Below are positions 6,700-26,475 of a stretch of 29,565 bases of DNA, piece after piece. The translations under genes and the position numbers were made by a program. Every line of letters starts with the position of its first letter. Positions within the stretch are counted from its first letter, which is position 1. This DNA is from an uncultured Candidatus Saccharibacteria bacterium (GTDB taxonomy: Bacteria; Patescibacteriota; Saccharimonadia; Saccharimonadales; UBA4665), in assembly GCA_964446315.1 (NCBI GenBank), contig CAYUNY010000001.1, forward strand, positions 1 to 29,565, in the 5' to 3' direction. The notes under the pieces are model-generated. The model was not told the DNA's origin, did not search any database, and saw nothing but the letters and a program-made list of their open reading frames with translations.

Positions 6700-6705
6700 T
6701 ATACT
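6700..6705 (+). promoter_or_regulatory. -10 box (TATACT) for the membrane-protein pair
   Basis: TATACT lies 7 nt before the ATG at 6713, in an AT-rich 75-bp spacer. Confidence 0.5.
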
Positions 6706-6712
6706 TTAAATA

Positions 6713-8071
6713 ATGACCTCAAAACGCAGTGGTTCTGCAGGAGCCGATTTTAGCGTCAAAATTGCTAAGCTGTTCCCTAAACAAAGCTACGATAAGGTGG
6801 TTGGATTCTTAATTTCATCTAAAAATTATAGATTCTTTAATGTTGTCTTGCTTTTACTTATCGCCGGCTTTTATGTTCTTAGGGCCCACCAATATTTACT
6901 CCGCCCCCAATTATATGCCGAGGATGGTACCCTTTGGCTGGCCGGCGCATATAATCAAGGGGTAGGCTCTGCCTTCCAGGCGTATCACGGGCTATCGCAT
7001 TTATTTGATCGGCTGTTCGGCCTGGTATCGATTCACCTTGTACCATTTCAGTACGAACCATTGTTATACGTTGTATCTGCCCTACTGATTTTTCTTCTTA
7101 TGAGCTACTACCTGCTGTCCGAAAGAAGCGGTATATTAACTACCAACTATCAAAAGTTGTTTTTCGCACTTTCATTGTGCTTGCTGGGCAATGCCGAGGA
7201 GTTCTATTTTAGCTTTTCCAATTCAGCGTTTTTGCTCGGCATTGTTGGACTCTTGATTTTGGTAATAAATAAGTCTCGCCACAAAACCGTCAACACATTA
7301 GAAAAAATTCTATTTTTCATACTTTGTTTTACGAATGTTTTTGCCTGGATATACATTATTATCTTAGCCTTTGAATATATCTGGAAGCGCCGTCGAAGAT
7401 ACTATTACATAGCCTGCGCTCTTACAGGCTCTATCACGCAGTTATTGATTCATATGCACCAGACGGCAGGCCAGAGACCAGATATTCCAACGCGTTACAT
7501 AGCGTCAAAAGCCACTCTGTTTGAATTCTATAATCAGATTATTATGCCTTCTTTACGGTTCGGGCGACAAGATATAAACCCGTTAATCCGTACCAAGGCT
7601 GATCTGGTTTTTGTTTGCCTGGCCCTACTTTTGAGCGGTAGCATTGTGGCATTTATATTCGTAAAATCTAATTATAGAACGAGGTGCCTGCTCTTTTTCT
7701 GTCTCATGATGACCCTAATCAGTCTCAAAAGCCCTATTAATGACCAGACTGCCCCAGCGGCGATTGTTATAGCTATGGCTACGTATCACTGGGGTAATAG
7801 GTACTTTATTTTCGGAATTCTCGGCATGTTTGTTGTTTGGGCAAAATTCAGCCAACGATTATTCAAGAAACAGCATCTCCCGGCCTTTTTGCTAGTCTTC
7901 TTTTCTTTCGGTTTGTTTTCTTCAATGACCCTCGGCTCGTTTAATATACAAAAATACTTCACTGATTTGAGTAAACAATATTCCCAGGGAGCGGCACAGC
8001 TCAAGCAGCCCAAGCACAAGAGGGTAGTTATACCCATTAATCCTACCGGTTGGTATATAGATATCCGATGA
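6713..8071 (+). CDS. Polytopic membrane protein, putative GT-C-fold glycosyltransferase (paralog A)
   Basis: About 10 hydrophobic segments. An acidic PQLYAEDG motif follows the first TM helix, with GNRYF later and a C-terminal IPINPTGW. Lies near gtrA and a Dpm1-like GT2. Confidence 0.6.
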   Translation: MTSKRSGSAGADFSVKIAKLFPKQSYDKVVGFLISSKNYRFFNVVLLLLIAGFYVLRAHQYLLRPQLYAEDGTLWLAGAYNQGVGSAFQAYHGLSHLFDRLFGLVSIHLVPFQYEPLLYVVSALLIFLLMSYYLLSERSGILTTNYQKLFFALSLCLLGNAEEFYFSFSNSAFLLGIVGLLILVINKSRHKTVNTLEKILFFILCFTNVFAWIYIIILAFEYIWKRRRRYYYIACALTGSITQLLIHMHQTAGQRPDIPTRYIASKATLFEFYNQIIMPSLRFGRQDINPLIRTKADLVFVCLALLLSGSIVAFIFVKSNYRTRCLLFFCLMMTLISLKSPINDQTAPAAIVIAMATYHWGNRYFIFGILGMFVVWAKFSQRLFKKQHLPAFLLVFFSFGLFSSMTLGSFNIQKYFTDLSKQYSQGAAQLKQPKHKRVVIPINPTGWYIDIR

Positions 8072-9351
8072 AATTCTACGCGAAAATAAATAAGTTCTTA
8101 GCTTCGTCTAAACAGTCGAGATTATTTAACAGTGGCTTGATTCTACTAATAGCTTCATCTTATATTATTAGAGCCTACCCGTATATTTTGCATCCTCAAC
8201 TTTTTGCAGAAGATGGCGATGTTTGGTTATCGGTTGCTTACAATCTCGGGCTTAAGTCTATATATCAGGTATACAATCAATTTTTGCAATTATTTGAGTG
8301 GCTGTTCAGTCTGTTTGCGGTTCATTTTGTTCCGCTACAAATCGTACCGCTCTTTTTCGTAGTGTCGGCCTTATTGATGTTTTTGTTGTTGTGTTACTAC
8401 CTCTTTTCTCAAAGAAGTGGCGTACTTAATACTAACTACCAAAAATTATATGTTGCCCTGTCGCTTTGCTTACTGGCGAATGCCGGGGAGCTTTTCTTTA
8501 ATTTTTCGAACGCAGTTTTCTATCTTGGACTAGTCGGGCTTTTTATCATCATTGTTAATAAATCAAAAAACAAATACGTTAACCTCCTGGAAAGAATCTT
8601 ATTTTTTGTACTCTGCTTTACGTCAGTTTTTCCGTTTGTGTATCTGGTTATTTTGCTCATTGAGTTGCTGTGGTATCGCAGGAAGAGGTATTACTACCTG
8701 GCATGTGCTGTTGCAGGATCAGTTGCTCAATTTATAGCTTTCATCTCTTATCCGTTGCAAAGACATAATATTCCTCTGCACGAAATCGCTTCAAGAACCA
8801 CGGGCGTAGAACTATACAATCAGATTATTAATCCTTCTTTGCGCTTTGGACGGCTCGATATAAATCCCCTGACAAGTACTCTATCCAGCATTAATTTCGC
8901 ATTTATTGCTGTCGTCCTGGTCGGAATAATAAGTCTGGCTATTTTTTACAAGTCCAATTATAAGACAAAGTACCTATTGCTCTTTTGTTTACTTATGACT
9001 TTGATAAGCCTGAGAGGCCCTGCCGATATAGAGAGTGTGGCAGTTATGGCAACCTCTCTTTCAGGAAATAGGTATTTTATCTATGGAATAATCGGGATGT
9101 TCGTCGTCTGGGCAAAGTTCAGCCAAACACTCTTTAAAAAAGATCATCTGGCTGGATTTCTACTAATCTTTTTTGCCTTCGCCACCATTTCATCCATTCG
9201 GCTTGGCTCGTTTCTCATACAAAAGGGCTGGATGGACCTTACAAAGGAGTACTCGACGGGGATCACCGAGTTTGATCATAATAGAGACCGAGGCATAAAG
9301 ATACCGGTAAACCCCCCGGGTTGGTACATCGTTTTCTTGCCTAAGAAGTAG
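8068..9351 (+). CDS. Polytopic membrane protein, putative GT-C-fold glycosyltransferase (paralog B)
   Basis: Colinear with paralog A (PQLFAEDG, TNYQKLYVALSLCLL, GNRYFIYGIIGMFVVWAKFSQ, IPVNPPGW). Start moved to ATG 8068 because of the ATGA overlap with the paralog A stop. Confidence 0.6.
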   Translation: MKFYAKINKFLASSKQSRLFNSGLILLIASSYIIRAYPYILHPQLFAEDGDVWLSVAYNLGLKSIYQVYNQFLQLFEWLFSLFAVHFVPLQIVPLFFVVSALLMFLLLCYYLFSQRSGVLNTNYQKLYVALSLCLLANAGELFFNFSNAVFYLGLVGLFIIIVNKSKNKYVNLLERILFFVLCFTSVFPFVYLVILLIELLWYRRKRYYYLACAVAGSVAQFIAFISYPLQRHNIPLHEIASRTTGVELYNQIINPSLRFGRLDINPLTSTLSSINFAFIAVVLVGIISLAIFYKSNYKTKYLLLFCLLMTLISLRGPADIESVAVMATSLSGNRYFIYGIIGMFVVWAKFSQTLFKKDHLAGFLLIFFAFATISSIRLGSFLIQKGWMDLTKEYSTGITEFDHNRDRGIKIPVNPPGWYIVFLPKK

Positions 9352-9361
9352 TCGCGTGGAC

Positions 9362-9916
9362 TTAAGCTATTACTAGCTCTTCTTCTTTGCTCTCTTCGGT
9401 TTCATGGCCACGAAATACCACGTACTTGTACAAGAGATAGTTCCAGGTCATGCCGATTAACACTGCTGTAAGTTTTGTGCCCAAAAGCTGAAGGGCTTTG
9501 AAGGTTATGGGGTGTCCAGCCGCCATAAAAGTACTGGTCTTATTAATAACCCATAGTTTGTCTGTTACTAAATATATGACGAGGTCTTGGATAAGAATAA
9601 CCCCCAGGCCGGTTACTAAAAAGAAGTGCGCATACTTTTTTAATGAATAGTCGCCATGGTGGCGAAACACAATTCGGTGATTGAGAAAGTATGAAACCGT
9701 TATGGCGATGCTGACCGATAAACTATTGGCTATAATTGGCGACCAGTTAAAAATTTTAACTATCGCGAACAGTAAACATATATCGAATGTGGTGTTAAAG
9801 CTACCGATCACTAGAAAACGAGTTATCCTACGTTCCCATAACTTTTTAACCAAATGCAACATACTGCTCTTTAAATACTTTCCTCTTTGGATGAATTTCT
9901 TGTTACTATTGTACAT
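9362..9916 (-). CDS. GtrA-family lipid-linked sugar translocase
   Basis: RFLVIGSFNT, ANSLS..VSYFLNHRIVF and WNYLLYKYVVF, with 4 TM segments. The start is uncertain (GTG 9931, ATG 9925, 9916 or 9862); 9916 has GATAAT 7 nt upstream. Confidence 0.85.
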   Translation of the reverse strand: MYNSNKKFIQRGKYLKSSMLHLVKKLWERRITRFLVIGSFNTTFDICLLFAIVKIFNWSPIIANSLSVSIAITVSYFLNHRIVFRHHGDYSLKKYAHFFLVTGLGVILIQDLVIYLVTDKLWVINKTSTFMAAGHPITFKALQLLGTKLTAVLIGMTWNYLLYKYVVFRGHETEESKEEELVIA

Positions 9917-9954
9917 GAAGACCATTATCACTTAATGCGCTGAAAGAATCGTTT

Positions 9955-10701
9955 GTGAAGAAAATTGCTATTGTTACTCCTACCTATAATGAAGCAAGCA
10001 ACATTAAGAAACTGATATTAGGTATTGAGAAGGCATGTAAGGGTCTTGGTGATTTATCATTCACCTTATTTGTTATCGACGACAGCTCGCCCGACGGCAC
10101 GGCGCGCGTCGCAAAAGAAGTTGCCAAAAAGATAAGTGCCAAGAACTTTAACGTGCGGGTACTGGTTCGCAAGACTAAAGAAGGCGTAGGCAAGGCCTAT
10201 GTTCACGGTTTTCATGAGGTGCTCAAGCAGGACTTTGATTTCCTTATACAAATAGATGCCGACCTGTCGCACAACCCAAAATATATTAAAGACCTTGTTG
10301 CCCAGGCGCGTTTGGGCAAGGATTTCGTATCAGCCTCCAGATACATCAAGGGCGGAGGGATTTCCGACTGGGGTCTACACCGAAAAATTCTGAGCCGCGG
10401 AGCTAATATCTACACAAGAACATTTTTAAGCGGCCGGATTACCGATTATACGAACGGCCTAAATATGTTTAGCACCGCTCTGTTAAGAGAAATCGATGTT
10501 GATACTCTCAGTTCAGCCGGCTATGGTTTCTTTATAGAACTTAAGTACAAAGCCCTGCAACATGCTAGGCATTATGCGCAAATACCGATCATTCTAACCG
10601 ATCGAAAACACGGCAAATCAAAGATGCCTAAAAATGCCATTGTCATAAATCTTTTACTGGTGCCGCGCTTGCGCCTGGTTGGCCAGAAGAAAACGAGTTA
10701 G
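9955..10701 (+). CDS. GT2 polyprenol-phosphate glycosyltransferase (Dpm1/Ppm1-like)
   Basis: VTPTYNEASNI, IDDSSPDGT, GVGKAYVHGF, IDADLSHNP, SASRYIKGG, DYTNG and the terminal DRKHGKSKM. GTG start; no C-terminal TM helices. Confidence 0.88.
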   Translation: MKKIAIVTPTYNEASNIKKLILGIEKACKGLGDLSFTLFVIDDSSPDGTARVAKEVAKKISAKNFNVRVLVRKTKEGVGKAYVHGFHEVLKQDFDFLIQIDADLSHNPKYIKDLVAQARLGKDFVSASRYIKGGGISDWGLHRKILSRGANIYTRTFLSGRITDYTNGLNMFSTALLREIDVDTLSSAGYGFFIELKYKALQHARHYAQIPIILTDRKHGKSKMPKNAIVINLLLVPRLRLVGQKKTS

Positions 10702-10703
10702 CG

Positions 10704-11984
10704 CTACTTTTTCTTGCGGGTAGGCTTGGATGAAGCCAGGGAGTAAGTAGAAAATTCTGGAGCTGGGAAGATCATTACTCCTCCCTTTTCCAAATATTTG
10801 TGTTCACGGTCAATAAACGTTTGCCTGAAGAACCAGGGTAAAATTAACAGGTAATCGGGCTGTTTCTTTCGCATGTCGGCTTCAGAATAAATAGGAATGT
10901 TGGTGCCAATGGTGTGGCGTCCCCATTTAACTTCCTGTTTCTCGGCGATGCCATCTACCAGGCTGTCGTCGAGTCCGAACATCTGTAGCAAGGTGTTACC
11001 TTTTGTGCTGGCACCGTACCCCCAGACAGATTTGCCCTCTGCCTTAGCCTGTTTAATGAAGTCGGCTGTTTGCTTCTTGAGCGCCAAAATTCGCTTATAA
11101 AAGTCGGTGTACACTTTTTTAGTGTTAAAGCCTTCGCGTTCTTCCCAACCTAGCAATGAATCTACCCTTATCTTACAAATGTCACGGTCGGCAGGTGTCA
11201 GATAATTATCGGGGGCGCCTTGCTTTTGCAAGTACAGTCTAATTGAACCGCCATTAACGTTGTTAAGCTCAACGTCTTTGATAACGAAACCGACCCGGTC
11301 CGTCAGCCATTTCAATGATGTCAGGTTATAGTAACAGAGGTGCTCATGGCAAATAACACCAAGTTCGGTCTGCATGATGTTGGCCGGAGTGTAAGAAACC
11401 TGCAGTGTAAACAGACCATCGTCCTCGAGAATCTCATAGACGTCCTTTAGGAAACTCTCGGGGTTATCGACATCATAGAAACAGGCCGCACAACTGACTC
11501 GTGAGGCTTTGGTATAGCCGGCTTTTTTAAATGCTTTGGCAGAGAAGTATTCTCGAATGTTAACATCGGCATTGTCCTTTGCTTCGGGATAATCCGAAGG
11601 GTCAATACCAACGCGTAGATACTTCTTTTTATCGACTGTAGATAATAGGTAGCCGTCGTTGGAAGCAATGTCAACATAGACCGATTTCTCGCTTTTTTCG
11701 GGGATGGACTTACAGGTTTTTTCTGCCAGATCTTGCAGTGCCTCACGCATGGCCGGGTTTACGGCGCTACGGTAGTAATACATACTGCCCCACATTAATG
11801 CGGCATCGGGCTGTTTGGTTAGTTGCACGGCCTTGCTAACCGGGTCGAAGCCAAGGGCCATTTCGCAGGGTGGCCCCTTTGGTTTTTCGCCCTTTTTTAA
11901 AAAGTCAGACACATAAAGTTCGCCGACACTAAAGAGAGGCTCTAATTTCGCCCCAGATACCACGCTTTTTCTGTACTCCGTCAT
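10704..11984 (-). CDS. NDP-hexose C-methyltransferase-like SAM-dependent enzyme
   Basis: YYYRS, VDIASNDG, ICHEHLCYY, NGGSIR, GYGASTKGNTLLQ and LILPWFF match the three-domain sugar 3-C-methyltransferase layout. The N-terminal Zn-site cysteines appear replaced. Confidence 0.85.
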   Translation of the reverse strand: MTEYRKSVVSGAKLEPLFSVGELYVSDFLKKGEKPKGPPCEMALGFDPVSKAVQLTKQPDAALMWGSMYYYRSAVNPAMREALQDLAEKTCKSIPEKSEKSVYVDIASNDGYLLSTVDKKKYLRVGIDPSDYPEAKDNADVNIREYFSAKAFKKAGYTKASRVSCAACFYDVDNPESFLKDVYEILEDDGLFTLQVSYTPANIMQTELGVICHEHLCYYNLTSLKWLTDRVGFVIKDVELNNVNGGSIRLYLQKQGAPDNYLTPADRDICKIRVDSLLGWEEREGFNTKKVYTDFYKRILALKKQTADFIKQAKAEGKSVWGYGASTKGNTLLQMFGLDDSLVDGIAEKQEVKWGRHTIGTNIPIYSEADMRKKQPDYLLILPWFFRQTFIDREHKYLEKGGVMIFPAPEFSTYSLASSKPTRKKK

Positions 11985-12113
11985 GAATAAATATACTATC
12001 AGATAATGGTGGTTCTACAAATAATTCGTTTGTGGTGAGTCAGATAGGTTTTGACTGGTAAAGTGTGAAGAAAAGTACTACAATAGTGTTGCAAGTCTAG
12101 TAAAATAAATACT

Positions 12114-12665
12114 GTGAAACAGCTAAAAAATTTCCGCGCCAAACACCCGTTTGCTTATATAACTCTCGTTCTGATAGTTATGGCTATTGCCGTGTTCGTA
12201 TTGCTAGAAGTTACCAATACGACCCACATATTCCACAAATCGTCTAAGCTGGCGACGGCCCGCAGTAAAGACTACAAGCCAAGCTCTCCTACAAGCACGA
12301 ATCAAGGCGGTGCTGTTGATAAAAAAGGTGCTCCTACTCCAACAACTGAAACAACAAGCTCAGCACAATGGACCACTTCCACCTCTGGGGTCATTACCCT
12401 GCAACAACCGGTAGCTAACACGACCGTCAATTCGGGTGACACCTTGCGGGGTACCGCCGAAACTGATACTATCCAGTACCGCCTTGTTGACGACAAAGTC
12501 GGCATTATTGCTCAGGGTTCTTTAAGCGTTGTTGGTGGAAAATTCTCCGGGGTATTGCAGTTTAACGCGCATAGTACTACCGGTGAACTGAAAGTATTCA
12601 GTATTGACCCTCAATCCGGAGCCGAAATTAACCACGCCGATATTAAGATCAATCTTAATCCATAG
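12114..12665 (+). CDS. Membrane-anchored exported protein: N-terminal TM, Ser/Thr/Pro-rich linker, C-terminal Ig-like (Gmad2-like) domain
   Basis: TM segment AYITLVLIVMAIAVFVLL; linker SSPTSTNQ..PTPTTETTSSAQWTTSTS; beta-rich ITLQQP..LRGTA..YRLVD..G..GELKVF. GTG start with TAAAAT 7 nt upstream. Confidence 0.6.
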   Translation: MKQLKNFRAKHPFAYITLVLIVMAIAVFVLLEVTNTTHIFHKSSKLATARSKDYKPSSPTSTNQGGAVDKKGAPTPTTETTSSAQWTTSTSGVITLQQPVANTTVNSGDTLRGTAETDTIQYRLVDDKVGIIAQGSLSVVGGKFSGVLQFNAHSTTGELKVFSIDPQSGAEINHADIKINLNP

Positions 12666-12682
12666 AAAGGCCGTTATAAGTA

Positions 12683-14929
12683 ATGTTCCAGCGTAAAAAG
12701 CCGTTTAGCCTTCTCACTGCTAGTCTGCTGGTATTGGCTTCGGTGCTAGGTTCACTCCTTCTGCCACAAGACGCACATGCTGCATATATAGCAAGCGATC
12801 TTATCGACAATATTATCTTCACTAATGCCGGCTCTATGGACCAGGGCCAGATTCAGACCTTTTTATCTGGTAAAGGTGGCTACATAGCTGGCTATTCGAC
12901 TTTCAGCGGCCGGGATGGTGGTAATGTACCAGCCTCGCGGATTATTGCCGAGGCCGCCTCGGACTATGGTATTAATCCGCAAGCTATTATGGCGACTCTG
13001 CAAAAAGAACAAAGCCTTGTAACGGATCCTAGCCCCAGCCAGTCTCAACTTAATTGCGCCATGGGATATTTATCTTGCGATGGTAGCCACAACTCCTTTT
13101 ATTCACAGGTTGATGCCGGAACATGGCAACTTCGCTACAGCTATGAAGCAAGTAGCGGTCGGGCTTGGGGTGGTCACTCTGTGTCTGAATACCCTTGCAA
13201 AAATGCCACCAACCTTTATTCTGCTGGCCTTTACCCAGGCAACACTGTTACTTTCTATAACAGCCCTGGTGGCTCGGCCAGGACAATTACTCTAGCTAAC
13301 GCGGCTACTGCTTCTCTCTATTGCTACACGCCTTACGTTGGGCCCTATAGTCAGACTGGCTATTCCGGTAGCTATAATTTTGTGATCAACTTTGAGGCTT
13401 GGTTCGGCAGTACCTTAGCATCCCCACTTGTGAAGTCATCAAGTAGCCCTAGCATTTATCTCCTTGATAGCGACGGCCAGACGCTACACCCGATCCCTTC
13501 GTATGACATAATGAGTGCGTTCGGATTATCGAGTACGCCGGTTACTGTTGTAAATTCATTGTCGGACTTTACCGTTGGTTCGACATTACATACTCTGATA
13601 CAAAGATCCGATGGCGGCATTTACTTAGTTGATCATGGCGTGAAGTATGCCATTAACAGTGGTGCTACCTGTACCAACTGGGGATTGGGCTGTTTCGACA
13701 CGAATCAAGTAACTACTGGCATGGGTGACAGAACCGTTGACGCAGTTCCTGTGGCCGGCACACTACCGGCACTGCAGAACAATAACGGCGCGGTTTACCT
13801 AATGAAAAATGGTAATAAGGAGCCGGTGATCAGCCCATCCGCGCTGTTTGAACTAGGTTATGGCTGGGGCGATGTAGCGCCAATTAGCAATTACAATAGT
13901 ACCCAACCGCTAGGGCCGCTACATATTCCCAATGGCATGGCTGTGAAATATAAATCTGGCGATGGCATATATCTCTATGACAACGGTGCTTATAATGCAA
14001 TTCAGGACATTAACCTTGTGTCGGCCTGGAACTTGAATGTTATCGCTAACCCCCCGGCTTCCAGTTATGACACGACACCACCACCCGTTTCCAGTGATGT
14101 TTTGTCCAATTTTGCTACCGATGGAAGAGACACCTACCTGATAGATCAGGGCATGAGAAAGTACATAACGTCCGGATTATCAGCGTGGACCACTGGATCG
14201 ACTCATATTACCAGTTTTGCCCACGCCGCTCTGGCTAAGCTACCAAGCTCATCCGCGACTACAATAATCCGGGCTGCTAGCGGCGGCATTTATGCCCTAC
14301 AGAACGGCGCTAAACGTCCTATACCTTCCTTTAATGACTTTTATGGGCTGGGGCTTAGCCCGAGCCAGCTAACTAACGTTTCTGATTACACTGCTTCGAC
14401 CCTCGCAACTGGCAATGTAGACCTGCCTGATTCGGCTCTGTTCCAGGTCAGTGGCAACCCAGGCATCTACCTGGTAAATAATCAGGGCGCCACCTGGCTC
14501 AGCACGCCAAACGACTTTTCCTATTTCGGTTTCAATTCGCGCGCCGTCGAGCAATTCCCCTCAAGTGTACTAACGGCATATCCTGCCAGTAGTGACGGGC
14601 TATTGGTGTTGGTCAGAAACGACAGCGGCCAGGTTTATACAGCCAGCAACGGCACCTTGTATGTCCTGAGCAGTAAGATCGTGAACGACTGGGGATTGGG
14701 GAGCGCTTCACCCACTCTCCTGAGCAATAAAAACCTATCCAGCCTCGGTAAATCGAATATGACTAATTTCGCACGCACGCCGAGCGGCTCCATCTACTAC
14801 GGCCAAGGCGGTTCTGCGCACCCGATCTCTAGTTACAACGAATTCTTGAGCTTAGGCGGTAGCTCCAGTAATACCATCAACGTTGCGCCTGAGTTTATTG
14901 CACTGTGCCCCGTTGGCTCAACACTGTAG
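12683..14929 (+). CDS. Secreted surface protein: signal peptide, putative lysozyme-like/cell-wall-hydrolase domain, nine ~55-aa repeats
   Basis: Signal peptide ending AHA-A. N-domain motifs IIFTN..SM..QIQTFL and YGINPQAIMATLQKEQSL. Repeats follow from aa ~249 to the C-terminus. Confidence 0.65.
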   Translation: MFQRKKPFSLLTASLLVLASVLGSLLLPQDAHAAYIASDLIDNIIFTNAGSMDQGQIQTFLSGKGGYIAGYSTFSGRDGGNVPASRIIAEAASDYGINPQAIMATLQKEQSLVTDPSPSQSQLNCAMGYLSCDGSHNSFYSQVDAGTWQLRYSYEASSGRAWGGHSVSEYPCKNATNLYSAGLYPGNTVTFYNSPGGSARTITLANAATASLYCYTPYVGPYSQTGYSGSYNFVINFEAWFGSTLASPLVKSSSSPSIYLLDSDGQTLHPIPSYDIMSAFGLSSTPVTVVNSLSDFTVGSTLHTLIQRSDGGIYLVDHGVKYAINSGATCTNWGLGCFDTNQVTTGMGDRTVDAVPVAGTLPALQNNNGAVYLMKNGNKEPVISPSALFELGYGWGDVAPISNYNSTQPLGPLHIPNGMAVKYKSGDGIYLYDNGAYNAIQDINLVSAWNLNVIANPPASSYDTTPPPVSSDVLSNFATDGRDTYLIDQGMRKYITSGLSAWTTGSTHITSFAHAALAKLPSSSATTIIRAASGGIYALQNGAKRPIPSFNDFYGLGLSPSQLTNVSDYTASTLATGNVDLPDSALFQVSGNPGIYLVNNQGATWLSTPNDFSYFGFNSRAVEQFPSSVLTAYPASSDGLLVLVRNDSGQVYTASNGTLYVLSSKIVNDWGLGSASPTLLSNKNLSSLGKSNMTNFARTPSGSIYYGQGGSAHPISSYNEFLSLGGSSSNTINVAPEFIALCPVGSTL
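13427..14926 (+). repeat. Nine degenerate ~50-60-aa protein repeats
   Basis: Recurring unit x-(L/I/F)-x-x-(S/N/D)-(G/P)-x-(I/V)-Y-L-x-x-x-G-x-x-x-x-I...(F/W/L)G. Examples: SPSIYLLDSDGQ, DGGIYLVDHGV, NGAVYLMKNGN, GDGIYLYDNGA, RDTYLIDQGM, SGGIYALQNGA, NPGIYLVNNQG, SGQVYTASNGT, SGSIYYGQGGS. Confidence 0.8.
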
Positions 14930-14960
14930 AGTATTTCAACCAAGCTTCTCTTAGACTCTG

Positions 14961-17900: not shown

Positions 17901-18020
17901 CCTTGGTTCGACTTTATCAATCCAGGCTTGGTAATCTCTCTTATCTTTTTTCCAGCCTTTAGCGCGCGAAACCATGCCTATAACCCACGGATTTTTTGAC
18001 TTTAGGATTCTTTTCTTCAA
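14961..18020 (-). CDS. Tri-domain glycosyltransferase GT2 + GT2 + WsaF-like GT4 (putative rhamnan polymerase)
   Basis: First GT2 from aa ~59 (ISIVMPCFNT, FLDHDD, YSDEDK, FKPNWSP). Second GT2 from aa ~317 (VSIIIPFKD, FNYSAINN, LLNNDTEV). GT-B from aa ~670 (FGGIFT, YFIQDYEPLFY, AESTY, RPNNPRNAF, SKHPSYQPFEFMASG). TTG start; alternative ATG at 17975. Confidence 0.88.
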   Translation of the reverse strand: MKKRILKSKNPWVIGMVSRAKGWKKDKRDYQAWIDKVEPRLFEADNADSQHNHENQGPLISIVMPCFNTPKKYISPLLESVINQTYQNWQLCLADGSDQQATKNSIKELARQDKRIKYIDVKENLGIVGNTNIGIDNASGEYVAFLDHDDVLSPFALSEVVSVLNWDPKLDLVYSDEDKLSDDGEKRSLPFFKPNWSPDLLLGVNYITHFVVARKAIVDEIGGLRPGFDGAQDYDFLLRFTEKTDRIGHIPKILYHWRLADGSTSKNVGEKDYADTAGRRALADAVERRKLEADVLEIRNRPTNYRLKYKLPAKQPKVSIIIPFKDKPDLLKQCVGSILSKTTYKNYEIILVSNNSKEEETHKYLNTLKLNEKCKIYLWDHPFNYSAINNFGSKQAGGEYLVLLNNDTEVLTSDWLEELIGVASQQGVGAVGPLLYYPNKTIQHAGIIVGMKVMAGHVFRHRLLTDWTDFGMPAWPRNYLAVTGACLAIEHAKYKEVGGLDETFLVAGNDVALGISLHEAGYRNIYWPFAELIHHENLSVGSYDNGIQLDYDHSLKYYRPYLGGRDPYFNINLDLMNEQIGLDTTSMSGAVQKAIHTYRNHGPKGVARKLRSTTRYRLRALNRLAPRRSKMMTSKELREEYNFVSNKIFQITEADITRSNKQITAHQLEKVSTANWFVPNFDHLSFGGIFTIFRFIEKFSKEGVHNRIIIYDNPSFDVEKLKKEISLKFPKLDKYELIIFDPAYQDLDDLPACDVAICSFWVSAYLLLKFNKTKRKYYFIQDYEPLFYQAGSTYALAESTYRFGFKGLVNTPGLLAAINQRHGTEGVSFIPAVDQTLYRPLAYKRTDKKVRVFFYARPNNPRNAFNLGIDIMKRLIKKYGDKIEIITAGANWSDGDFGLRGKILNLGLLKSIDEVADLYRNCDIGFVYMLSKHPSYQPFEFMASGMATVTNNNEDNLWLLKDGVNCLLSEPSPAAMAEKISLLVDDKVLRDKIAKNGLQSLGYTWSQQLDTIWNYVSTK

Positions 18021-18048
18021 TATAAGTATGCCCTGCTCTCGCCACTAG

Positions 18049-18999
18049 TTATTTTGGGGAAATTTTAGCCTTGGTGCTAGAAAGTCGCTTTGCAAGCCTC
18101 CATGCTTTACTTTTTTTAATATTATCAAGATCGGTCTTATGTTTGTTTAGTTCAGCGATCTGCTCTTCTTTAGCCTTCAAGATACCCTCGTAGTGGCTGA
18201 TTGTATCCTTTATGTATGCTTGTAATTCGTCCCCCTGTTCGCCAACTTGTTTAGAGCTCCAATGTTCTGAAAGCACACCAATAGGGCTTATCGATTCTTG
18301 TATCGGTTCGTCAGAACATATCAACATGAAGAAAAGTACCTGCTCCGGCTTCAGGGGCGCAGCATTAATGATTCTGATTTTTTCATCGCTCTCTTCAAAA
18401 ATCATCTTATCGTTACTGACTCCGCTATAAAGCCATGTGCCTTGGTAATAAGAGTCAACGTATTTAAAGTGTTTTTTTAAGAAATCAACGAGTTCTTTGT
18501 GCTCATACTCATGTACATGGAAGTGATTACCTTCTGGAAACTCCAGATCGTTTGGGGTAGAAAGAATGAGCTGTCCCTTGGGCTTAAGCACTCTTTTTAT
18601 CTCCCGCAAAAACTTCTCTGCTTCTTTAATGTGCTCCAACGTTTCAAATGTTACGACACTTTCTACCGAGTTATTATCAATCGGTATTTTGGTTCCGCTA
18701 CCAACCTTAAAGGTAATGTTAGGGTTATTAAAATTTTTCTTGGCGTACTCTACGGCCCCCTTGTCAATGTCAACTCCGTAAACCTCGTTTGCTGTTTGGG
18801 CAAGCATTTGTGTGCCATATCCCGACCCGCAAGCAATATCAAGAATAGTTTTTCCCTTAACCAGTGGTGCCGCAGACTGGTATCTGGCTATATGGTCGCC
18901 GTATGCAATGGTAGCTTTGTGGTGCTCAGGCACCATCCTCTCTCCATCGTTAGGCAGTTCTACCTTTTTCTTGTTCGTGGTTGGCTTCGGTGTTCGCAT
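18049..18999 (-). CDS. Class I SAM-dependent methyltransferase with C-terminal coiled coil (putative glycan chain terminator)
   Basis: ERMVP..HIARY, ILDIACGSGYGT, VTFETLEH, LILSTPN, NHFHVHEY. The tail LKAKEEQIAELNKHKTDLDNIKKSKAWRLAKRL is heptad-like. Confidence 0.85.
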   Translation of the reverse strand: MRTPKPTTNKKKVELPNDGERMVPEHHKATIAYGDHIARYQSAAPLVKGKTILDIACGSGYGTQMLAQTANEVYGVDIDKGAVEYAKKNFNNPNITFKVGSGTKIPIDNNSVESVVTFETLEHIKEAEKFLREIKRVLKPKGQLILSTPNDLEFPEGNHFHVHEYEHKELVDFLKKHFKYVDSYYQGTWLYSGVSNDKMIFEESDEKIRIINAAPLKPEQVLFFMLICSDEPIQESISPIGVLSEHWSSKQVGEQGDELQAYIKDTISHYEGILKAKEEQIAELNKHKTDLDNIKKSKAWRLAKRLSSTKAKISPK

Positions 19000-19008
19000 A
19001 TGACCTCT

Positions 19009-19037
19009 ATTCTAACTTCGTTGGTGCAAGTAAACAA
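19009..19037 (-). promoter_or_regulatory. Putative internal sigma70-type promoter for the methyltransferase/polymerase pair
   Basis: TTGTTT (19037-19032), a 17-nt spacer, TAGAAT (19014-19009), then 9 nt to the ATG at 18999. Confidence 0.45.
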
Positions 19038-19059
19038 CCTGCGCAGTAGTTGTTCTCAT

Positions 19060-20280: not shown

Positions 20281-20282
20281 GG

Positions 20283-21083: not shown

Positions 21084-21092
21084 TATTTTAGA

Positions 21093-21125
21093 GTATTATA
21101 GAGGAAATGAGCGCTTCAGTCGATG
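21093..21125 (+). repeat. 33-bp imperfect direct repeat, copy 1 (contains overlapping bidirectional -10 boxes)
   Basis: gtattatagaggaaatgag-cgcttc-agtcgatg; 27/33 identical to 23507-23539. Confidence 0.85.
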
Positions 21126-22469
21126 AATAAGAAGGTCCGTGGCACGCGTCCTCAAAGTCCTCGCCTCCTGTTTATCGCCCCAACAAACGACTTAATAGCC
21201 GGCGGCGAGATATCGCATTTCGAGCTTATTAAAGCCGCTGTTAACCGTGGCTGCAGGGTGCATGTGGTGTTGCCGGGGGACGGCTATTTCGCCAACCAAC
21301 TTGCCAGGCGGAAGATAGGTCACACTGTTGTTCCCTTTTCCTATTGGCACCCGGAAATCCCAGCAATGGACGTCGCCCTACAAGATACGGAAGCCATTTT
21401 AAAGATATCTGCTCTCATAAAGAGCCTGCAAATCGATTCTGTGATAACCAACACGCTGAACATGCCTTGGGGGGCGGTCGCGGCGGCAATGACTAACGTG
21501 CCGCACGTATGGATAGCGCGCGAATTTCCGTTACATGAATTTAAGTATCTTGGGGATCGCTATGATTTTATTGGCGGTTTTTCAAACTTGGTGATAGCGA
21601 ACTCCAAAAATCTCGCCAAATATATGCGTGACGAGGCCGGCCTGACGAAAGTTAAGCATTTTTATTCGTATGTGAATGCAGATCACCTAGCGCTAGATAC
21701 CGGTATCAAGAAGACGCGTGTCGTATGTGTTGGCAACATTCATTCCCGTAAGAACCAGCTGGAACTCATACGGGCGATGGCGCTCGTTAAGGAAAAGTAT
21801 GGGGAGGACTATAAGCTACTTATTATCGGGCACGCCGTAGAGAAACCCTACTACAAGAACCTCCAGCAAGAGGTTAAAAAAACCGGCCTGCAGAATATGG
21901 TTGAATTTCTGCCATTTTCGGAACAGCCATGGAGCTACATCAGGCCGAACGATGTGTTCGTGCAAACATCTGTCTCGGAAAGTATTGGCCGTAGCATGAC
22001 CGAGGCGATGAAACTTGGTATCGTCTGCATCGGCTCCGATATCCCGGGCATACGTGAGGCGTTCGGGTTGGGAGGTGGCATTCTTTACAAGAGCGGGGAT
22101 CCCCTGGACCTGGCTGCGAAGATTTCGATGGTCTTAGAAAGTCCCGAAAAATATAGGCAACAGGCCAAGCAAGCCCAAAAGCAGGCCTCGAAAAACATGT
22201 CTGAAAAGACGGCGCACGATCCTTTCTTTCGCGAACTCGACAAGTTATTCGGCGCGTCTAATCCCAGAGGGGAGCTGGCACATCTGCTACCCCTCCTTGA
22301 GGGCGAAGTTACCAACCATAAACGACATCTTGCGGAGCTGTCAATAATAGGCAAGGAGAATAAAGCGCTGGCGTTGCACCTCAAGGCTACCGATGCCGAT
22401 TTACAGAATGTGGTTCAGTCCAAGGCGTGGAAATTTGTACTACATATACGAAAAGTCTTAAGAAGATAG
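21123..22469 (+). CDS. GT4 glycosyltransferase with C-terminal coiled coil and SKAW tail
   Basis: GGEISHF, VITNT, HVWIARE, VGNIHSRKNQ and the EX7E motif ESIGRSMTE. Tail: ..LKATDADLQNVVQSKAWKFVLHIRKVLRR. Confidence 0.85.
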   Translation: MNKKVRGTRPQSPRLLFIAPTNDLIAGGEISHFELIKAAVNRGCRVHVVLPGDGYFANQLARRKIGHTVVPFSYWHPEIPAMDVALQDTEAILKISALIKSLQIDSVITNTLNMPWGAVAAAMTNVPHVWIAREFPLHEFKYLGDRYDFIGGFSNLVIANSKNLAKYMRDEAGLTKVKHFYSYVNADHLALDTGIKKTRVVCVGNIHSRKNQLELIRAMALVKEKYGEDYKLLIIGHAVEKPYYKNLQQEVKKTGLQNMVEFLPFSEQPWSYIRPNDVFVQTSVSESIGRSMTEAMKLGIVCIGSDIPGIREAFGLGGGILYKSGDPLDLAAKISMVLESPEKYRQQAKQAQKQASKNMSEKTAHDPFFRELDKLFGASNPRGELAHLLPLLEGEVTNHKRHLAELSIIGKENKALALHLKATDADLQNVVQSKAWKFVLHIRKVLRR

Positions 22470-23498
22470 CTTGTTGTAGGCTTGAAACCAGCTAATAAAT
22501 TCATCCAGGCCGTCGGTGTATGGGGTTTGTGGCTCGTAGCCGATGGCGTTCTTTAGCTTTGAGTTATCGGCGTCGGTAAAGGGGGCTTCCTCTTGGCTCA
22601 TCGGCACGCGTTTAATCTGGGGCTTTACGGCCAGCTTGTCGGCTATGTATGCAAGCACCGCCTCGATGTTAACGGGCTCGCTGTGGCCGATGTTAAAGGT
22701 TGTATGGTTAGGGTACGACTTATCGCCAGCTTGTTTTCCGTCATAAAACTTGTCAATTAGGGTTTGCACCGCCTGTGCGATGTCGCCGACGTAAGTCATG
22801 TCACGCAAGACGTCGCCGTTGCCACGTAGCTCGACCGGCCGGTTTTTAGCCAGCGCTTCGGCCCACCTGTAATAGGCCATGTCGGGCCGGCCCCATGGTC
22901 CGTAAGCACTAAAGAACCTCATGGCTATACAGCGTAGCCTCGAGTTACGTGAGTATGACTTGGCCATTAATTCGTTACTTATCTTGGTGGCCGCGTAAAG
23001 CGATAAAGGCCTGTCGCACTGCTCCGTTTCTTTCCACGGCATGTTGGCGTTTGATCCGTAGACTGAAGAGGACGAAGCGTAAAGGAAGAGTTTCACGCCA
23101 TGCTTGCTGGACTGCTCGATAATATTGCTGAAGCCGTCGATATTGGAGTGGATGTAGCTGGTGGGGTTTGTGGCCGAGTAGCGGACGCCGGCCTGGGCGG
23201 CCAGGTTGATGACTACTTCGAAGTGTTGCCTATCAAAAATGGCGGTCATGCCTTTAGCGCCGGCGATGTCTTGGTTGATAAATTTAAGGCGTTGCCCTGT
23301 TCCGTTTGCTTTTACGCCCAGGTTTTTGAGCCTGTCTTTTTTAAGTCGGGGGTCGTAGTAGTCGTTCAGGTTGTCTATGATTGTCAGGTTGGCCGTGGTT
23401 TTTTCAAGTAGCCTTTTGGAGACGTGATAGCCGATAAAGCCCGCGCCTCCGGTAATCAAAATGTTCTTGATCGGATTCCTTGGGGGAGAGTGTGGCAT
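22458..23498 (-). CDS. NAD-dependent epimerase, UDP-glucuronate 4-epimerase-like
   Basis: [70 protein letters not shown]. The start is trimmed from 23636 to ATG 23498 so that it does not overlap the divergent GT2. Confidence 0.88.
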   Translation of the reverse strand: MPHSPPRNPIKNILITGGAGFIGYHVSKRLLEKTTANLTIIDNLNDYYDPRLKKDRLKNLGVKANGTGQRLKFINQDIAGAKGMTAIFDRQHFEVVINLAAQAGVRYSATNPTSYIHSNIDGFSNIIEQSSKHGVKLFLYASSSSVYGSNANMPWKETEQCDRPLSLYAATKISNELMAKSYSRNSRLRCIAMRFFSAYGPWGRPDMAYYRWAEALAKNRPVELRGNGDVLRDMTYVGDIAQAVQTLIDKFYDGKQAGDKSYPNHTTFNIGHSEPVNIEAVLAYIADKLAVKPQIKRVPMSQEEAPFTDADNSKLKNAIGYEPQTPYTDGLDEFISWFQAYNKLSS

Positions 23499-23520
23499 GT
23501 TTTGCGGTATTATAGAGGAA
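23499..23520. promoter_or_regulatory. 22-bp divergent spacer with overlapping -10 hexamers
   Basis: TATTAT on + (23508-23513, 7 nt before ATG 23521) and TATAAT on - (23514-23509, 10 nt before ATG 23498). Confidence 0.6.
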
Positions 23521-23539
23521 ATGAGTAGCCTAGTCGATG
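23507..23539 (+). repeat. 33-bp imperfect direct repeat, copy 2
   Basis: gtattatagaggaaatgag-tagcct-agtcgatg; includes the first 19 nt of the GT2 CDS. Confidence 0.85.
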
Positions 23540-24549
23540 TTAGTGCTTGCGTGGTCGTGCCCAATTGGAATGGCGCCGACAGTCTAAAAAGATGTCTTGA
23601 TTCACTGCTTAAGCAAAGCCTGAAGCCACATATCATCGTGGTCGATAACGGTTCTGTCGACGGATCGGTTGGGATTATTGAAAGCTATGCCTGCATCGAG
23701 CTTATCCAACACGCTAGAAACCTTGGTTATGCCGGCGGTGTTAATGCCGGCTTTAAGCGGGCTATTGAACTTGGCTTTAATTACGCCGCGCCATTCAACA
23801 ATGATGCCGTGGCCGACGAGCATTGGTTGGAGAAGCTAGTTGACCACATTGATAAGCACTCCGAGGTTGGTGTCGCGGCCTGCAAGCTACTGAACGCCGA
23901 TGGCACGGCGATAGACAGCACCGGTGATTACTACACCATCTGGGGACTGCCCTATCCACGCGGCCGCGGCGAGACCGGTATTAATAAGTACGATGCCGAT
24001 ACCGAGATTTTCGCGGCCAGCGGCGGTGCCAGTCTATATAGGGTAAAAATGTTAGAAGAAATTGGATTGTTCGACGAAGATTTTTTCGCCTACTACGAAG
24101 ATGTCGACTTAAGCTTCCGGGCTCAACTGGCGGGTTGGAAGGTGGCTTATGTGCCTGCGGCGATAGCCTATCATCAAATTGGCGCCACCAGCGGCAAACT
24201 AAAAGGCTTCACGACCTATCAAACGCTCAAGAACCTGCCGCAACTGCTCTGGAAAAACATGCCGCCCGGCCTTCTATGGCCGGTTTGGCGACGACTGGTA
24301 CTGGCTTATTCGTTCTTTCTTTTGCGGGCATTATCGCGCGGGCAAATTGTAGCCGTAGTGAAGGGCCTGTTTGTGGGAGCCACTCTGTGGCCCGGCACTT
24401 TACTTAAGCGCCGCAAAATCCAGGGGTCACGCAAAGTCTCTAACGAATATATTTGGAGCGTGCTGGTACATGACCTGCCGCCTAGCGCCCGGGCCTTGCG
24501 AAAACTGCGAGCTGTTTGGTGGAAACTACTCAGGAAACGTGTAGGCTAG
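23521..24549 (+). CDS. GT2 glycosyltransferase, WbbL-like (putative rhamnosyltransferase)
   Basis: VVVPNWNG, VVDNGSVDGS, NLGYAGGVN, FNNDA, GGASLYR, FDEDFFAYYEDVDL, AYH. Start set at ATG 23521. Confidence 0.88.
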   Translation: MSSLVDVSACVVVPNWNGADSLKRCLDSLLKQSLKPHIIVVDNGSVDGSVGIIESYACIELIQHARNLGYAGGVNAGFKRAIELGFNYAAPFNNDAVADEHWLEKLVDHIDKHSEVGVAACKLLNADGTAIDSTGDYYTIWGLPYPRGRGETGINKYDADTEIFAASGGASLYRVKMLEEIGLFDEDFFAYYEDVDLSFRAQLAGWKVAYVPAAIAYHQIGATSGKLKGFTTYQTLKNLPQLLWKNMPPGLLWPVWRRLVLAYSFFLLRALSRGQIVAVVKGLFVGATLWPGTLLKRRKIQGSRKVSNEYIWSVLVHDLPPSARALRKLRAVWWKLLRKRVG

Positions 24550-24553
24550 TAGT

Positions 24554-25483: not shown

Positions 25484-26475
25484 TCGAGATCCGACGCCGA
25501 TTCTAGGCCTACATCGTGCTGTACCATCATTTTTACAAGGCTCGGGAAATCTACTTTGCGTTTCCAGCCTAGTTCTTTTTCGGCCTTAGCAGAATTACCA
25601 AGCAAGACATCCACTTCGGCTGGTCGCATAAAAGCCGGGTTTTTCTTAACGTATGGTTTCCAGTTGTTTATGCCTACTTCGCTAAAGGCAAGGTCTAGAA
25701 AGTCCTTTATGGAATGGCTTTCGCCCGTTGCCAATACATAATCGTCTGGTTTGTCTTGCTGTAACATACGCCATATCCCATCAACATAGTCGCCGGCATA
25801 GCCCCAGTCACGGCTTGCTTCTAAGTTACCGAGCTCGATGTGGGTCTGCTTATTCAAATGTATTCGCGCCACGCTGTTGCTGATTTTTCGGGTCACAAAC
25901 TCCAGGCCCCGTCTCGGGCCTTCGTGATTAAATAAAATGCCGCAACTGGCGTGCATACCGTAACTCTCGCGGTAGTTTCTGGTCGTCCAATGGGCATACA
26001 ATTTAGCAACTCCGTATGGGCTTCTTGGGTGGAATGTAGCCTTCTCGTCGTATCCCTTCTGTGAGCGGTTGTAGTCCATGCCGCCAAACATTTCCGAAGT
26101 AGACGCTTGATAAAAGCGTATGGTCTTGGTGCCGCCACTTTGGCGGATGGCTTCTAGGATGTTTAATGCGCCTTTGCCTGTGACATCAGCCACCAGTTGT
26201 GGAGCCTTGAAAGAGTACCCTACATGGCTGATAGCGGCCAGGTTATAAACTTCGTCGGGCTTTGAGGTTTCCAGAGCATGCATCAGTGAAGACTGGTCGG
26301 TCAAATCGCCTTCAATAAGGTGAACGTAAGGCTGTTCCTGCTCAACCCGCTGTTGCTTGGGGTTGTGTTGACCGCGGATCAGGCCGTAAACCTTGTAGCC
26401 TTTTTCGTGTAATAACTCTGCTAGGTGGTAGCCGTCTTGTCCGGTGATACCTGTAATAAGTGCTTGTTTTGCCAT
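25480..26475 (-). CDS. gmd: GDP-mannose 4,6-dehydratase
   Basis: ALITGITGQDG, EVYNLAAISHV, FYQASTSEMFG, PRSPYGVAKLY, GILFNHE, FVTRKI, LGNLEASRDWG, RPAEVDVLLG. Confidence 0.97.
   Translation of the reverse strand: MAKQALITGITGQDGYHLAELLHEKGYKVYGLIRGQHNPKQQRVEQEQPYVHLIEGDLTDQSSLMHALETSKPDEVYNLAAISHVGYSFKAPQLVADVTGKGALNILEAIRQSGGTKTIRFYQASTSEMFGGMDYNRSQKGYDEKATFHPRSPYGVAKLYAHWTTRNYRESYGMHASCGILFNHEGPRRGLEFVTRKISNSVARIHLNKQTHIELGNLEASRDWGYAGDYVDGIWRMLQQDKPDDYVLATGESHSIKDFLDLAFSEVGINNWKPYVKKNPAFMRPAEVDVLLGNSAKAEKELGWKRKVDFPSLVKMMVQHDVGLESASDLD

Follow-up and report, generated by a model that had tools for sequence, protein, structure and literature searches.

What does a glycan locus that also encodes two Ser/Thr-rich exported proteins make, and what are those proteins for? 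This question is raised by a 29,565-nucleotide stretch of DNA (the window) from an uncultured Candidatus Saccharibacteria bacterium of the order Saccharimonadales (assembly GCA_964446315.1), which comprises the entire contig CAYUNY010000001.1 (C1 in our numbering) of a 738-kb genome in 106 contigs that is 84% complete. Members of the Saccharibacteria live as obligate epibionts, and their genomes are smaller than 1 Mb. A sequence-only reading of the window had proposed a complete surface-glycan system in a probable Patescibacterium, in which two proteins of 748 and 183 amino acids (aa), encoded inside the locus, would be the acceptors of an S-layer-like glycosylation. The system is indeed complete and its host is a member of the Patescibacteria (Saccharimonadia, judging by the names of homologues); open reading frame (ORF) calling and Pfam and NCBIfam scans recovered the listed genes, each in its place. 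The function we propose is a different one. With a probability of roughly 60%, we consider this to be a conserved Saccharimonadales envelope locus that makes a methyl-capped rhamnose glycan, exports it through an ATP-binding cassette (ABC) transporter, adds side chains by means of a module of a family 2 glycosyltransferase (GT2), a GtrA-family protein and GT-C enzymes, and encodes its own autolysin together with a partner protein. Glycosylation in Saccharibacteria has been called unexplored (PMC11623550), and our literature searches gave no description of this locus, or of an S-layer or O-antigen ligase, in this group.

A candidate capped polymer and its ABC exporter

The window holds all the parts of an O9a-type capped ABC pathway: the exporter proteins Wzm and Wzt (the latter with a Wzt_C domain), a polymerising glycosyltransferase of several domains and a candidate terminator methyltransferase. 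All are encoded on the reverse strand. The exporter is encoded by wzm (20283-21083; ABC2_membrane, E 4.6e-21) and by wzt (19060-20280; ABC_tran, E 1.3e-23), the product of which carries the glycan-cap-binding domain Wzt_C (E 1e-21). The candidate chain-extending (rhamnosyl)transferase is a GT2-GT2-WsaF fusion of 1019 aa (14961..18020) with two Glycos_transf_2 domains (E 1.5e-47), WsaF_N (E 3.5e-11) and WsaF_C (E 1.3e-27). In the closest relative, locus L006, the same domains are distributed over two genes of 600 aa and 433 aa (18314-21359). A 316-aa S-adenosylmethionine-dependent methyltransferase (18049..18999; Methyltransf_11, E 2.7e-25) is a candidate chain terminator; its position between the polymerase gene and wzt suggests that it may add a methyl cap. 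Judging by its domains, the rmlBCDA cluster (3377-6637, described below) is a dTDP-L-rhamnose synthesis pathway.

The predicted initiator lies across a contig end

Where is such a chain begun? As the sequence-only reading had noted, the window contains no initiator of the PF00953 or PF02397 families and no Wzy_C protein. These absences are an artefact of the contig end, because both genes lie on the abutting contig, C48; a search of the rest of the genome, which that reading had called for, found a WbaP-type phosphoglycosyltransferase there. When reverse-complemented, C48 (genome G000, locus L089) overlaps bases 1-55 of the window exactly, and the reading frame of glmS runs through the join (3..1499, forward strand; SIS and GATase domains; the gene is 5'-truncated by the contig end and its first ~110 codons are on C48). 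Upstream of the window, C48 adds genes for a Wzy_C-family protein (440 aa; Wzy_C, E 4.2e-15), a WbaP/WcaJ-type phosphoglycosyltransferase (480 aa; Bac_transf, E 3.9e-55, with TIGR03025 above its cut-off) and a family 4 glycosyltransferase (GT4; 368 aa). The phosphoglycosyltransferase, which lies between the GT4 and the Wzy_C-family protein, is the only one of its type in the genome. The order Wzy_C-phosphoglycosyltransferase-GT4-(glmS/manC), followed by the genes for the 183-aa protein (the partner) and the 748-aa protein (the hydrolase), is repeated in the relatives L044, L048, L050 and L053. From this recurring order and the contig join, it follows that the locus extends beyond the left end of the window by ~5.8 kb, a stretch that contains its initiator. 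In this 84%-complete genome, mraY is the sole PF00953 gene (it has a dcw context, together with ftsW and a penicillin-binding protein gene), and TagO/GacO-type initiation was therefore rejected.

Of 81 genomes of the order, 76 encode a Wzy_C-family protein, most of them only one. By contrast, a Wzx-type flippase scores above the Pfam cut-off in only 7/41, and profile searches of our 84%-complete genome gave no match to Wzx, SLH, PMT or PMT_2. The combination of a near-universal Wzy_C with a scarce Wzx makes a role as Wzy polymerase unlikely, and we rejected it; a role as ligase is plausible. A sequence search with the Wzy_C protein against solved structures gave no match. Ligases of another kind are also encoded: two LytR-CpsA-Psr (LCP) genes (LytR_cpsA_psr) lie elsewhere in the genome, on contigs C85 and C6.

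A GT2/GtrA/GT-C module, proposed to add side chains

A second, lipid-linked route occupies four adjacent genes (6713-10701), which together encode a set of the three-component decoration type: one GT2, one GtrA-family protein and two GT-C proteins. This logic of a synthase, a GtrA-type protein and a GT-C transferase is known from GacI/J/L, from PpgS/Rv3632/Rv3779 and from GtrA/B/C. The GT-C proteins are tandem paralogs on the forward strand: paralog A (452 aa; 6713..8071) and paralog B (427 aa from the ATG at 8068; 8068..9351), which are 55% identical and whose stop and start codons overlap as ATGA. The GtrA-family small membrane protein (9362..9931, reverse strand; PF04138, E 3.6e-23) may be a flippase or a partner of the GT2. 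The latter (9955..10701, forward strand; PF00535, E 1.8e-25) is a 248-aa Dpm1/ArnC/PpgS-like protein without transmembrane (TM) helices and a candidate polyprenyl-phosphate sugar synthase; the ArnC, AglJ, PgfS and PpgS models all match it below their cut-offs. The sugar transferred may be unusual, judging by the neighbouring gene for a nucleoside-diphosphate-sugar C-methyltransferase (10704..11984, reverse strand; Methyltransf_14, E 3.8e-43; Methyltransf_23, E 4e-14).

The sequence-only reading had assumed a GT-C fold for the two membrane paralogs, and structure prediction confirmed it. An AlphaFold2 (AF2) model of paralog A built from 17 homologues (predicted local distance difference test score, pLDDT, 81.5; predicted template modelling score 0.85) was searched against 48,161 PDB representatives. 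GT-C enzymes filled the top 19 places (Z from 16.2 down to 7.4, over 240-353 aligned residues), including ALG12 (16.2), PglB (15.3), AglB (15.0), ArnT (13.3), Pmt1-Pmt2 (13.2) and AftB (12.1); unrelated structures in this search ran down to about Z 6. The best Foldseek match in the PDB had an E value of 6.7e-3, and the wide VIA-align search and the AlphaFold database clusters were more informative: GT-C clusters in that database matched at E 1e-12 to 1e-8, with clusters named as DUF2029- and RgtA-like at ~1e-12. A feature search of the ESM Atlas returned unnamed clusters and a weak lead to DUF6056. Directly after the first TM helix, the residues A69-E70-D71-G72 are conserved without exception in 17 sequences, with identities as low as 22%; in the model, this acidic AEDG motif would lie in the first extracytoplasmic loop. 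Neither the two paralogs (Pfam E up to 10) nor any of the 17 family members gave a usable Pfam or NCBIfam match, and yet the family is large: with an E-value limit of 1e-3, a profile search of a representative library recovered 5,887 clusters. Distant members are fused to a WecG/TagA or a GT2 domain (P0205, P0256). The contexts of three distant relatives were mixed; one lies in a Wzx/Wzy/PMT_2 polysaccharide locus, and the others were uninformative.

Do these enzymes ligate a glycan or decorate it? The sequence-only reading had left both possibilities to the GT-C pair, and decoration is the better fit, given that the proteins are small and flanked by the Dpm1-like GT2 and GtrA. The structural matches to PglB and AglB are confined to the membrane domain, only ~45 residues follow the last TM helix, and no WWD motif was found in either paralog. 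There was no PMT or PMT_2 profile match, and the likeness to Pmt1-Pmt2 is at the general GT-C level. The small size and the lack of both a soluble domain and a WWD motif argue that the paralogs resemble ALG, PimE and GtrC enzymes, which transfer single sugars from polyprenyl phosphate, and not oligosaccharyltransferases. Because genes for a Dpm1-like GT2 and GtrA adjoin the GT-C genes, their donor is suggested to be a polyprenyl-phosphate-linked sugar. A GT-C gene also stands beside a Dpm1-like GT2 (and GtrA) in L006, L008, L037 and L056.

A probable secreted hydrolase and its predicted membrane-anchored partner

Between the decoration module and the polymerase gene lie the genes for the two proteins that had been described as exported and Ser/Thr-rich. 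Both are rich in Ser and Thr (20.9% in the 748-aa protein and 22.4% in the 183-aa protein, versus 13.1% in the genome's long ORFs). The former is secreted, as had been claimed; the latter is anchored in the membrane.

The 748-aa protein (12683..14929, forward strand) has a signal peptide, a lysozyme/GH73-like head at about residues 33-250 and approximately nine EccB/PlyCB-like repeats at residues 251-748 (AF2 model, pLDDT 86.9). The best structural match of the head was LytB (Z 10.2, root-mean-square deviation 3.0, 134 residues aligned), followed by about 40 other peptidoglycan glycosidases; further matches were a Clostridioides difficile glucosaminidase (Z 8.2), lytic transglycosylases (Z 7-8) and phage lysins. 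Glu109 is invariant in 23 sequences. On the modelled structure, the head is a lysozyme-type fold with a predicted catalytic glutamate. Among curated profiles, only SLT_4 of Pfam matched it, below the cut-off (E 0.048), and no NCBIfam model did. The head also matches the propeptide region of LasA (E 1.4e-3). The repeats resemble the periplasmic domain of EccB1 (Foldseek E 2.7e-7), more weakly PlyCB (Z 3.5), and also an enterococcal endolysin binding domain. In Swiss-Prot, the best structural match of the repeat region is the C-terminal part of Bacillus subtilis CgeD, a spore-crust glycosyltransferase (E 6e-9). Hundreds of Saccharimonadales proteins share the head and carry bulb lectin, ricin lectin, FG-GAP or repeat modules at their C-termini. 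A protein that folds as a lysozyme-like head with repeats gives no support to a role as dedicated acceptor; it is probably the cell's own autolysin. A precedent is the autolysin EpaU of Enterococcus faecalis: its gene belongs to the epa rhamnopolysaccharide cluster, and its wall-binding domain binds the polymer made there (PMC13343894). By analogy, the repeats may bind the polymer of their own locus.

The 183-aa partner (12114..12665, forward strand) consists of an N-terminal TM helix, a variable Ser/Thr-rich linker at residues 41-92 (40% Ser and Thr) and a conserved immunoglobulin-like (Ig-like), Gmad2-type ectodomain at residues 93-183 (Gmad2, E 1.8e-4). The ORF directly upstream of the hydrolase gene, on the same strand, encodes a protein of about 160-210 aa with an N-terminal TM anchor in nearly every one of 80 related loci. 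A complex model of the hydrolase head with the partner ectodomain scored 0.72, and none of three controls scored above 0.00. Of 80 solved complexes, 58 reach this mark, as do 2 of 110 mismatched pairs. Three runs had at least 83% of their contacts in common, with a partner pLDDT of at least 91. The modelled interface joins hydrolase residues 109-111 and 114-125 to the most conserved loop of the partner (123-136), which supports a placement of the partner over the catalytic cleft. The 183-aa protein is thus predicted to be a binding partner of the hydrolase, and its proposed role as a second dedicated acceptor was not upheld.

A comparison with the closest relative, L006 (15397-18302), points to the same two domains. 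DNA identity is 73-90% on either side of a segment of about 1.3 kb (~12,200-13,480) in which it is 44-56%. This segment corresponds exactly to the partner ectodomain and the hydrolase head, and the repeats remain ~86% identical at the protein level. Because the drop in identity is confined to ectodomain and head, we conclude that both were replaced together, as one block.

Linkage across relatives

Do the exported proteins travel with the glycan genes? We counted genes within 10 kb of the hydrolase/partner pair in the 47 related loci that span 15 kb or more. The rml genes, wzm and wzt, or both, were near the pair in 31 of the 47, and a GT-C paralog in only two. The co-segregation that the sequence-only reading had expected thus holds for the rml/Wzm-Wzt core and fails for the GT-C paralogs, and the counts indicate that the pair belongs to the glycan locus as such and not to the GT-C module.

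The hydrolase family occurs in 37 of 41 sampled genomes of the order, mostly in single copy; about 25 of these 37 genomes carry it and Wzy_C on one contig, at a distance of 4-31 kb. Since the locus is retained in nearly every sampled genome of the order, it is likely to be central to building and dividing the envelope. Homologous pairs also lie between rmlABCD and wzm/wzt in Microbacterium and related Actinobacteria (Microbacteriaceae). Homologues of the 748-aa protein in cultured Microbacteriaceae were found in Microbacterium (L074, L078, L080, L087 and L088) and in Galbitalea (L082). L074, L080, L082 and L087 also carry an LCP gene no more than 10 kb away.

Sugar supply and the extent of the locus

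The remaining genes of the locus supply or transfer sugars. At the left, on the reverse strand, lie genes for a haloacid dehalogenase (HAD)-IIB phosphatase resembling phosphomannomutase (1502..2275; Hydrolase_3, E 5e-15; PMM, E 4e-8) and for a ManC-like sugar-1-phosphate nucleotidyltransferase with a ManC beta-helix (2272..3309; NTP_transferase, E 3.6e-41), which may provide GDP-mannose. On the forward strand follow rmlB (3377-4375; GDP_Man_Dehyd/Epimerase), rmlC (4375-4926; dTDP_sugar_isom, E 3e-40), rmlD (4926-5780; RmlD_sub_bind, E 7e-63) and rmlA (5777-6637; NTP_transferase, E 7e-74). To the right of wzm are a 448-aa GT4 (21123..22469, forward strand; Glycos_transf_1, E 2.8e-34), a nucleotide-sugar epimerase/dehydratase of the short-chain dehydrogenase/reductase (SDR) family (22458..23636, reverse strand; Epimerase, E 2.4e-49) and a rhamnosyltransferase-like GT2 (23461..24549, forward strand; PF00535, E 3.9e-26; TIGR01556 below its cut-off, E 3.5e-17), which accompanies wzm/wzt in relatives. 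Beyond these lie an SDR protein resembling GDP-sugar reductases and epimerases (24554-25483, forward strand; GDP_Man_Dehyd, E 4e-50), a GDP-mannose 4,6-dehydratase (25480-26475, reverse strand; GDP_Man_Dehyd, E 7.7e-123; TIGR01472 gmd, E 1.3e-120) and, as the last gene of the locus and just beyond the region covered by the sequence-only reading, a 362-aa GT4 (26508..27596, forward strand; Glycos_transf_1, E 3.1e-34).

The SDR epimerase gene probably begins at the in-frame ATG at 23498, because the Epimerase domain starts only at residue 59 of the longest ORF, and the adjoining GT2 gene probably begins at the ATG at 23521. The longest ORFs of the two overlap by 176 nt; the later starts abolish the overlap and put the Rossmann domain at the N-terminus. 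A 40-nt direct repeat (21086-21125 and 23500-23539; 78% identical, spacing 2414 nt) lies in the two divergent intergenic regions that border the GT4/epimerase pair, and a different ATG of each copy serves as a start codon, at 21123 and probably at 23521.

The right end of the locus is marked by jag-yidC-rnpA (R3H/KH, YidC and RNase P protein, from the Pfam scan). In the variable central part, at about 6.7-21 kb, the GC content is 39-47%, versus 55% in the genome and in the flanking rml and yidC regions. A low GC content, as in this central block (6700-21000), is usual for exchangeable glycan gene blocks.

Proposed mechanism and its alternatives

How might these components work together? We observed gene families, folds, synteny, a contig join and a predicted complex, from which we infer the enzymatic roles, namely methyl capping, side-chain transfer and binding of the polymer by the repeats. 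We propose that the WbaP-type phosphoglycosyltransferase and the GT4 encoded on C48 would prime undecaprenyl phosphate, and that the GT4 and GT2 enzymes and the GT2-GT2-WsaF protein would draw on dTDP-rhamnose and GDP-sugars to lengthen the chain in the cytoplasm. The 316-aa methyltransferase would then cap the chain, and Wzm/Wzt would export it, with the C-terminal domain of Wzt reading the cap. In parallel, the soluble GT2 might charge undecaprenyl phosphate with a sugar, the GtrA-family protein might assist it or flip the product, and the GT-C paralogs might add this sugar to the polymer as a side chain outside the membrane. The polymer could finally be attached to peptidoglycan, by either of the two LCP enzymes, or else to a protein or a lipid, by the adjacent Wzy_C protein. 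The secreted hydrolase would cut peptidoglycan as an autolysin, with its EccB/PlyCB-like repeats binding the wall; it would probably be positioned by binding the polymer of its own locus, in the manner of EpaU. The membrane-tethered Ig-like partner would dock on the catalytic cleft and so inhibit or park the enzyme.

Several points weigh against this proposal. The WbaP-type initiator is unlike the TagO/GacO initiators of streptococcal rhamnans. In the Saccharimonadia loci, the 10 kb around the hydrolase/partner pair hold a Wzy_C gene and no LCP gene, and a Wzy_C gene in this place is the arrangement of the protein-glycosylating slg cluster of Geobacillus stearothermophilus. Because the head belongs to no Pfam family, its action on peptidoglycan rather than on another glycan is a prediction from fold, and the evidence that the repeats bind the polymer consists of fold likeness and the EpaU precedent. 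We also count here the comparison of genes within 10 kb on either side of repeat-type hydrolases with those around hydrolases of other C-termini, which gave only a weak trend (rml, 10/21 versus 9/26; GDP-sugar genes, 2/21 versus 6/26). All absences from the genome are provisional, since the assembly is 84% complete.

Could the locus instead glycosylate proteins? That the 183-aa and 748-aa proteins are dedicated, S-layer-like acceptors, onto which the GT-C pair ligates or decorates a glycan, seems very unlikely to us. Their place inside the locus, their elevated Ser/Thr content (reaching 40% in the partner's linker), the fold that the GT-C proteins have in common with PMT, PglB and AglB, and the presence of most slg-type parts (RmlABCD, the WsaF domain, Wzm/Wzt, a WsaP-like phosphoglycosyltransferase and Wzy_C) would all be expected of such a system. 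However, the 748-aa protein is a modular enzyme, with a lysozyme-like head and wall-binding repeats, and not a lattice protein of the S-layer type, the complex model brings the two proteins together at the catalytic cleft, and the 84%-complete genome gave no match to an SLH domain. The GT-C proteins lack a soluble acceptor-binding domain, a WWD motif and a PMT or PMT_2 match; the pair is present in 37/41 genomes and a GT-C paralog accompanies it in only 2/47 loci; and the same pair recurs in Microbacteriaceae loci with an LCP gene. Somewhat less unlikely, yet still improbable, is an slg-type O-glycosylation of other acceptors, such as pilins or an S-layer protein, in which Wzy_C, as an O-oligosaccharyltransferase, takes the exported, capped rhamnan from undecaprenyl diphosphate and the hydrolase and partner are passengers. 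The same gene set glycosylates the S-layer protein of the monoderm Geobacillus, as is well established; Wzy_C adjoins the phosphoglycosyltransferase both here and in relatives; and its presence in 76/81 genomes, with Wzx in only 7/41, makes a ligase plausible. Pilin glycosylation has been predicted in Saccharibacteria (PMC11623550). Against this stand the two LCP ligases of the genome and the LCP gene carried by homologous actinobacterial loci; moreover, no acceptor protein was identified, a sequence search linked the Wzy_C protein to no solved ligase, and its family comprises polymerases as well as ligases.

A further alternative concerns the hydrolase/partner pair only, and is compatible with the glycan part of our proposal. 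The pair might be an effector with its immunity protein, in which lectin-like repeats aim the glycosidase at the wall of the actinobacterial host or of a competitor, the partner protects the wall of the producer, and the placement in the locus is incidental. The partner is predicted over the cleft, as in lysozyme inhibitors and Tsi proteins, whose enzymes were among the structural matches (4g9s, 4luq and 4kt3); head and ectodomain were swapped as a block between close relatives, as in polymorphic toxin loci; the C-terminal modules are diverse (bulb lectin, ricin, FG-GAP or repeats); and the rhamnose wall polysaccharide of the host is a recognised target of Saccharibacteria (PMC11623550). We nevertheless find it unlikely. 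The usual single copy in 37/41 genomes is as expected of a housekeeping autolysin, the position within the cell's own glycan locus is conserved, homologues lie in the same type of locus in free-living Microbacterium, and EpaU is an autolysin. Another reading, which we regard as speculative and unlikely, is that Wzy_C, as an O-oligosaccharyltransferase, moves the methyl-capped rhamnan onto surface proteins, perhaps the Ser/Thr linker of the partner or type IV pilins, and that this glycan positions the inhibitor-checked autolysin. If it were true, a pathway of the S-layer-glycan type would be the main route of envelope glycosylation in Saccharimonadales epibionts. We retain the reading of a capped, decorated envelope rhamnan with an autolysin and its partner encoded in the same locus.

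Comparison with known systems

Like gacA-L of Streptococcus pyogenes and scc/rgp of S. mutans, our locus has genes for dTDP-rhamnose synthesis, for rhamnosyltransferases that act in the cytoplasm and for an ABC exporter of a chain linked to undecaprenyl. The soluble Dpm1-like GT2, the small GtrA-type protein and the GT-C correspond to GacI, GacJ and GacL, and in both cases the LCP ligases are encoded elsewhere in the genome. It differs in having a WbaP-type and not a TagO/GacO-type initiator, a methyltransferase and Wzt_C that point to cap-controlled export, an adjacent Wzy_C gene, and tandem GT-C paralogs of a family without sequence relation to any named family. The likeness to the slg cluster of G. 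stearothermophilus NRS 2004/3a (RmlABCD, WsaC-F, WsaP, WsaB and Wzm/Wzt) proved to be stronger than the sequence-only reading had claimed, since a WsaP-like phosphoglycosyltransferase and a Wzy_C protein of the WsaB/WaaL family lie directly upstream. Both have the Rml enzymes, a WsaF-type domain, methylation and Wzm/Wzt, and both combine a WbaP-like initiator with a Wzy_C-family membrane protein in one locus of a monoderm-type cell. In our locus, no S-layer or SLH protein was found, and the two exported products are a probable hydrolase with its predicted partner; the methyltransferase stands alone instead of forming part of a WsaE-like fusion; the GT2/GtrA/GT-C module is added; and Wzy_C is a putative oligosaccharyltransferase. 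As in Escherichia coli O8/O9a, where WbdD acts, a chain terminated by methylation would be tied to an ABC transporter with Wzt_C, the terminator here being a candidate only. Unlike that system, ours belongs to a monoderm-type cell without lipid A, would make a polymer of rhamnose and not of mannose, is initiated by a WbaP-type and not a WecA enzyme, and has a small terminator without a kinase domain.

The decoration module resembles PpgS/Rv3632/Rv3779 of Mycobacterium tuberculosis, which places galactosamine on arabinogalactan, and GtrA/GtrB/GtrC of Shigella, in that a synthase, a GtrA-family protein and a GT-C enzyme modify a wall glycan outside the membrane. The differences are that two final transferases are present here and that the matches to PpgS, ArnC and AglJ are weak. 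Like EpaU (PMC13343894), the hydrolase is a predicted peptidoglycan hydrolase within a rhamnopolysaccharide cluster, which may bind the polymer. It has an unnamed lysozyme/GH73-like head and EccB/PlyCB-like repeats as its binding module, and its gene is preceded by that of a membrane-anchored partner, of which the abstract on EpaU makes no mention. With PliG, MliC and Tsi3, the partner shares the feature of a small beta-rich protein predicted on the cleft of a lysozyme-fold enzyme, here tethered to the membrane. It has no sequence relation to them, is Gmad2-like (E 1.8e-4) and is encoded by the first gene of an operon that also includes its target enzyme, and its inhibitory action is a prediction.

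Three of the families involved, namely the GT-C family (~5,900 clusters), the lysozyme-like head and the Ig-like partner, have no curated model. The predicted enzyme-inhibitor-like pair should provide a testable handle on autolysin control in Saccharibacteria, and the Microbacteriaceae loci offer a tractable system for the role of the hydrolase. The locus may also shape the surface that these cells offer to hosts and to phages. Each of its mechanisms, taken singly, is of a known kind; the locus combines traits of the rhamnan loci of streptococci, the slg cluster of Geobacillus and O9a-type capping.

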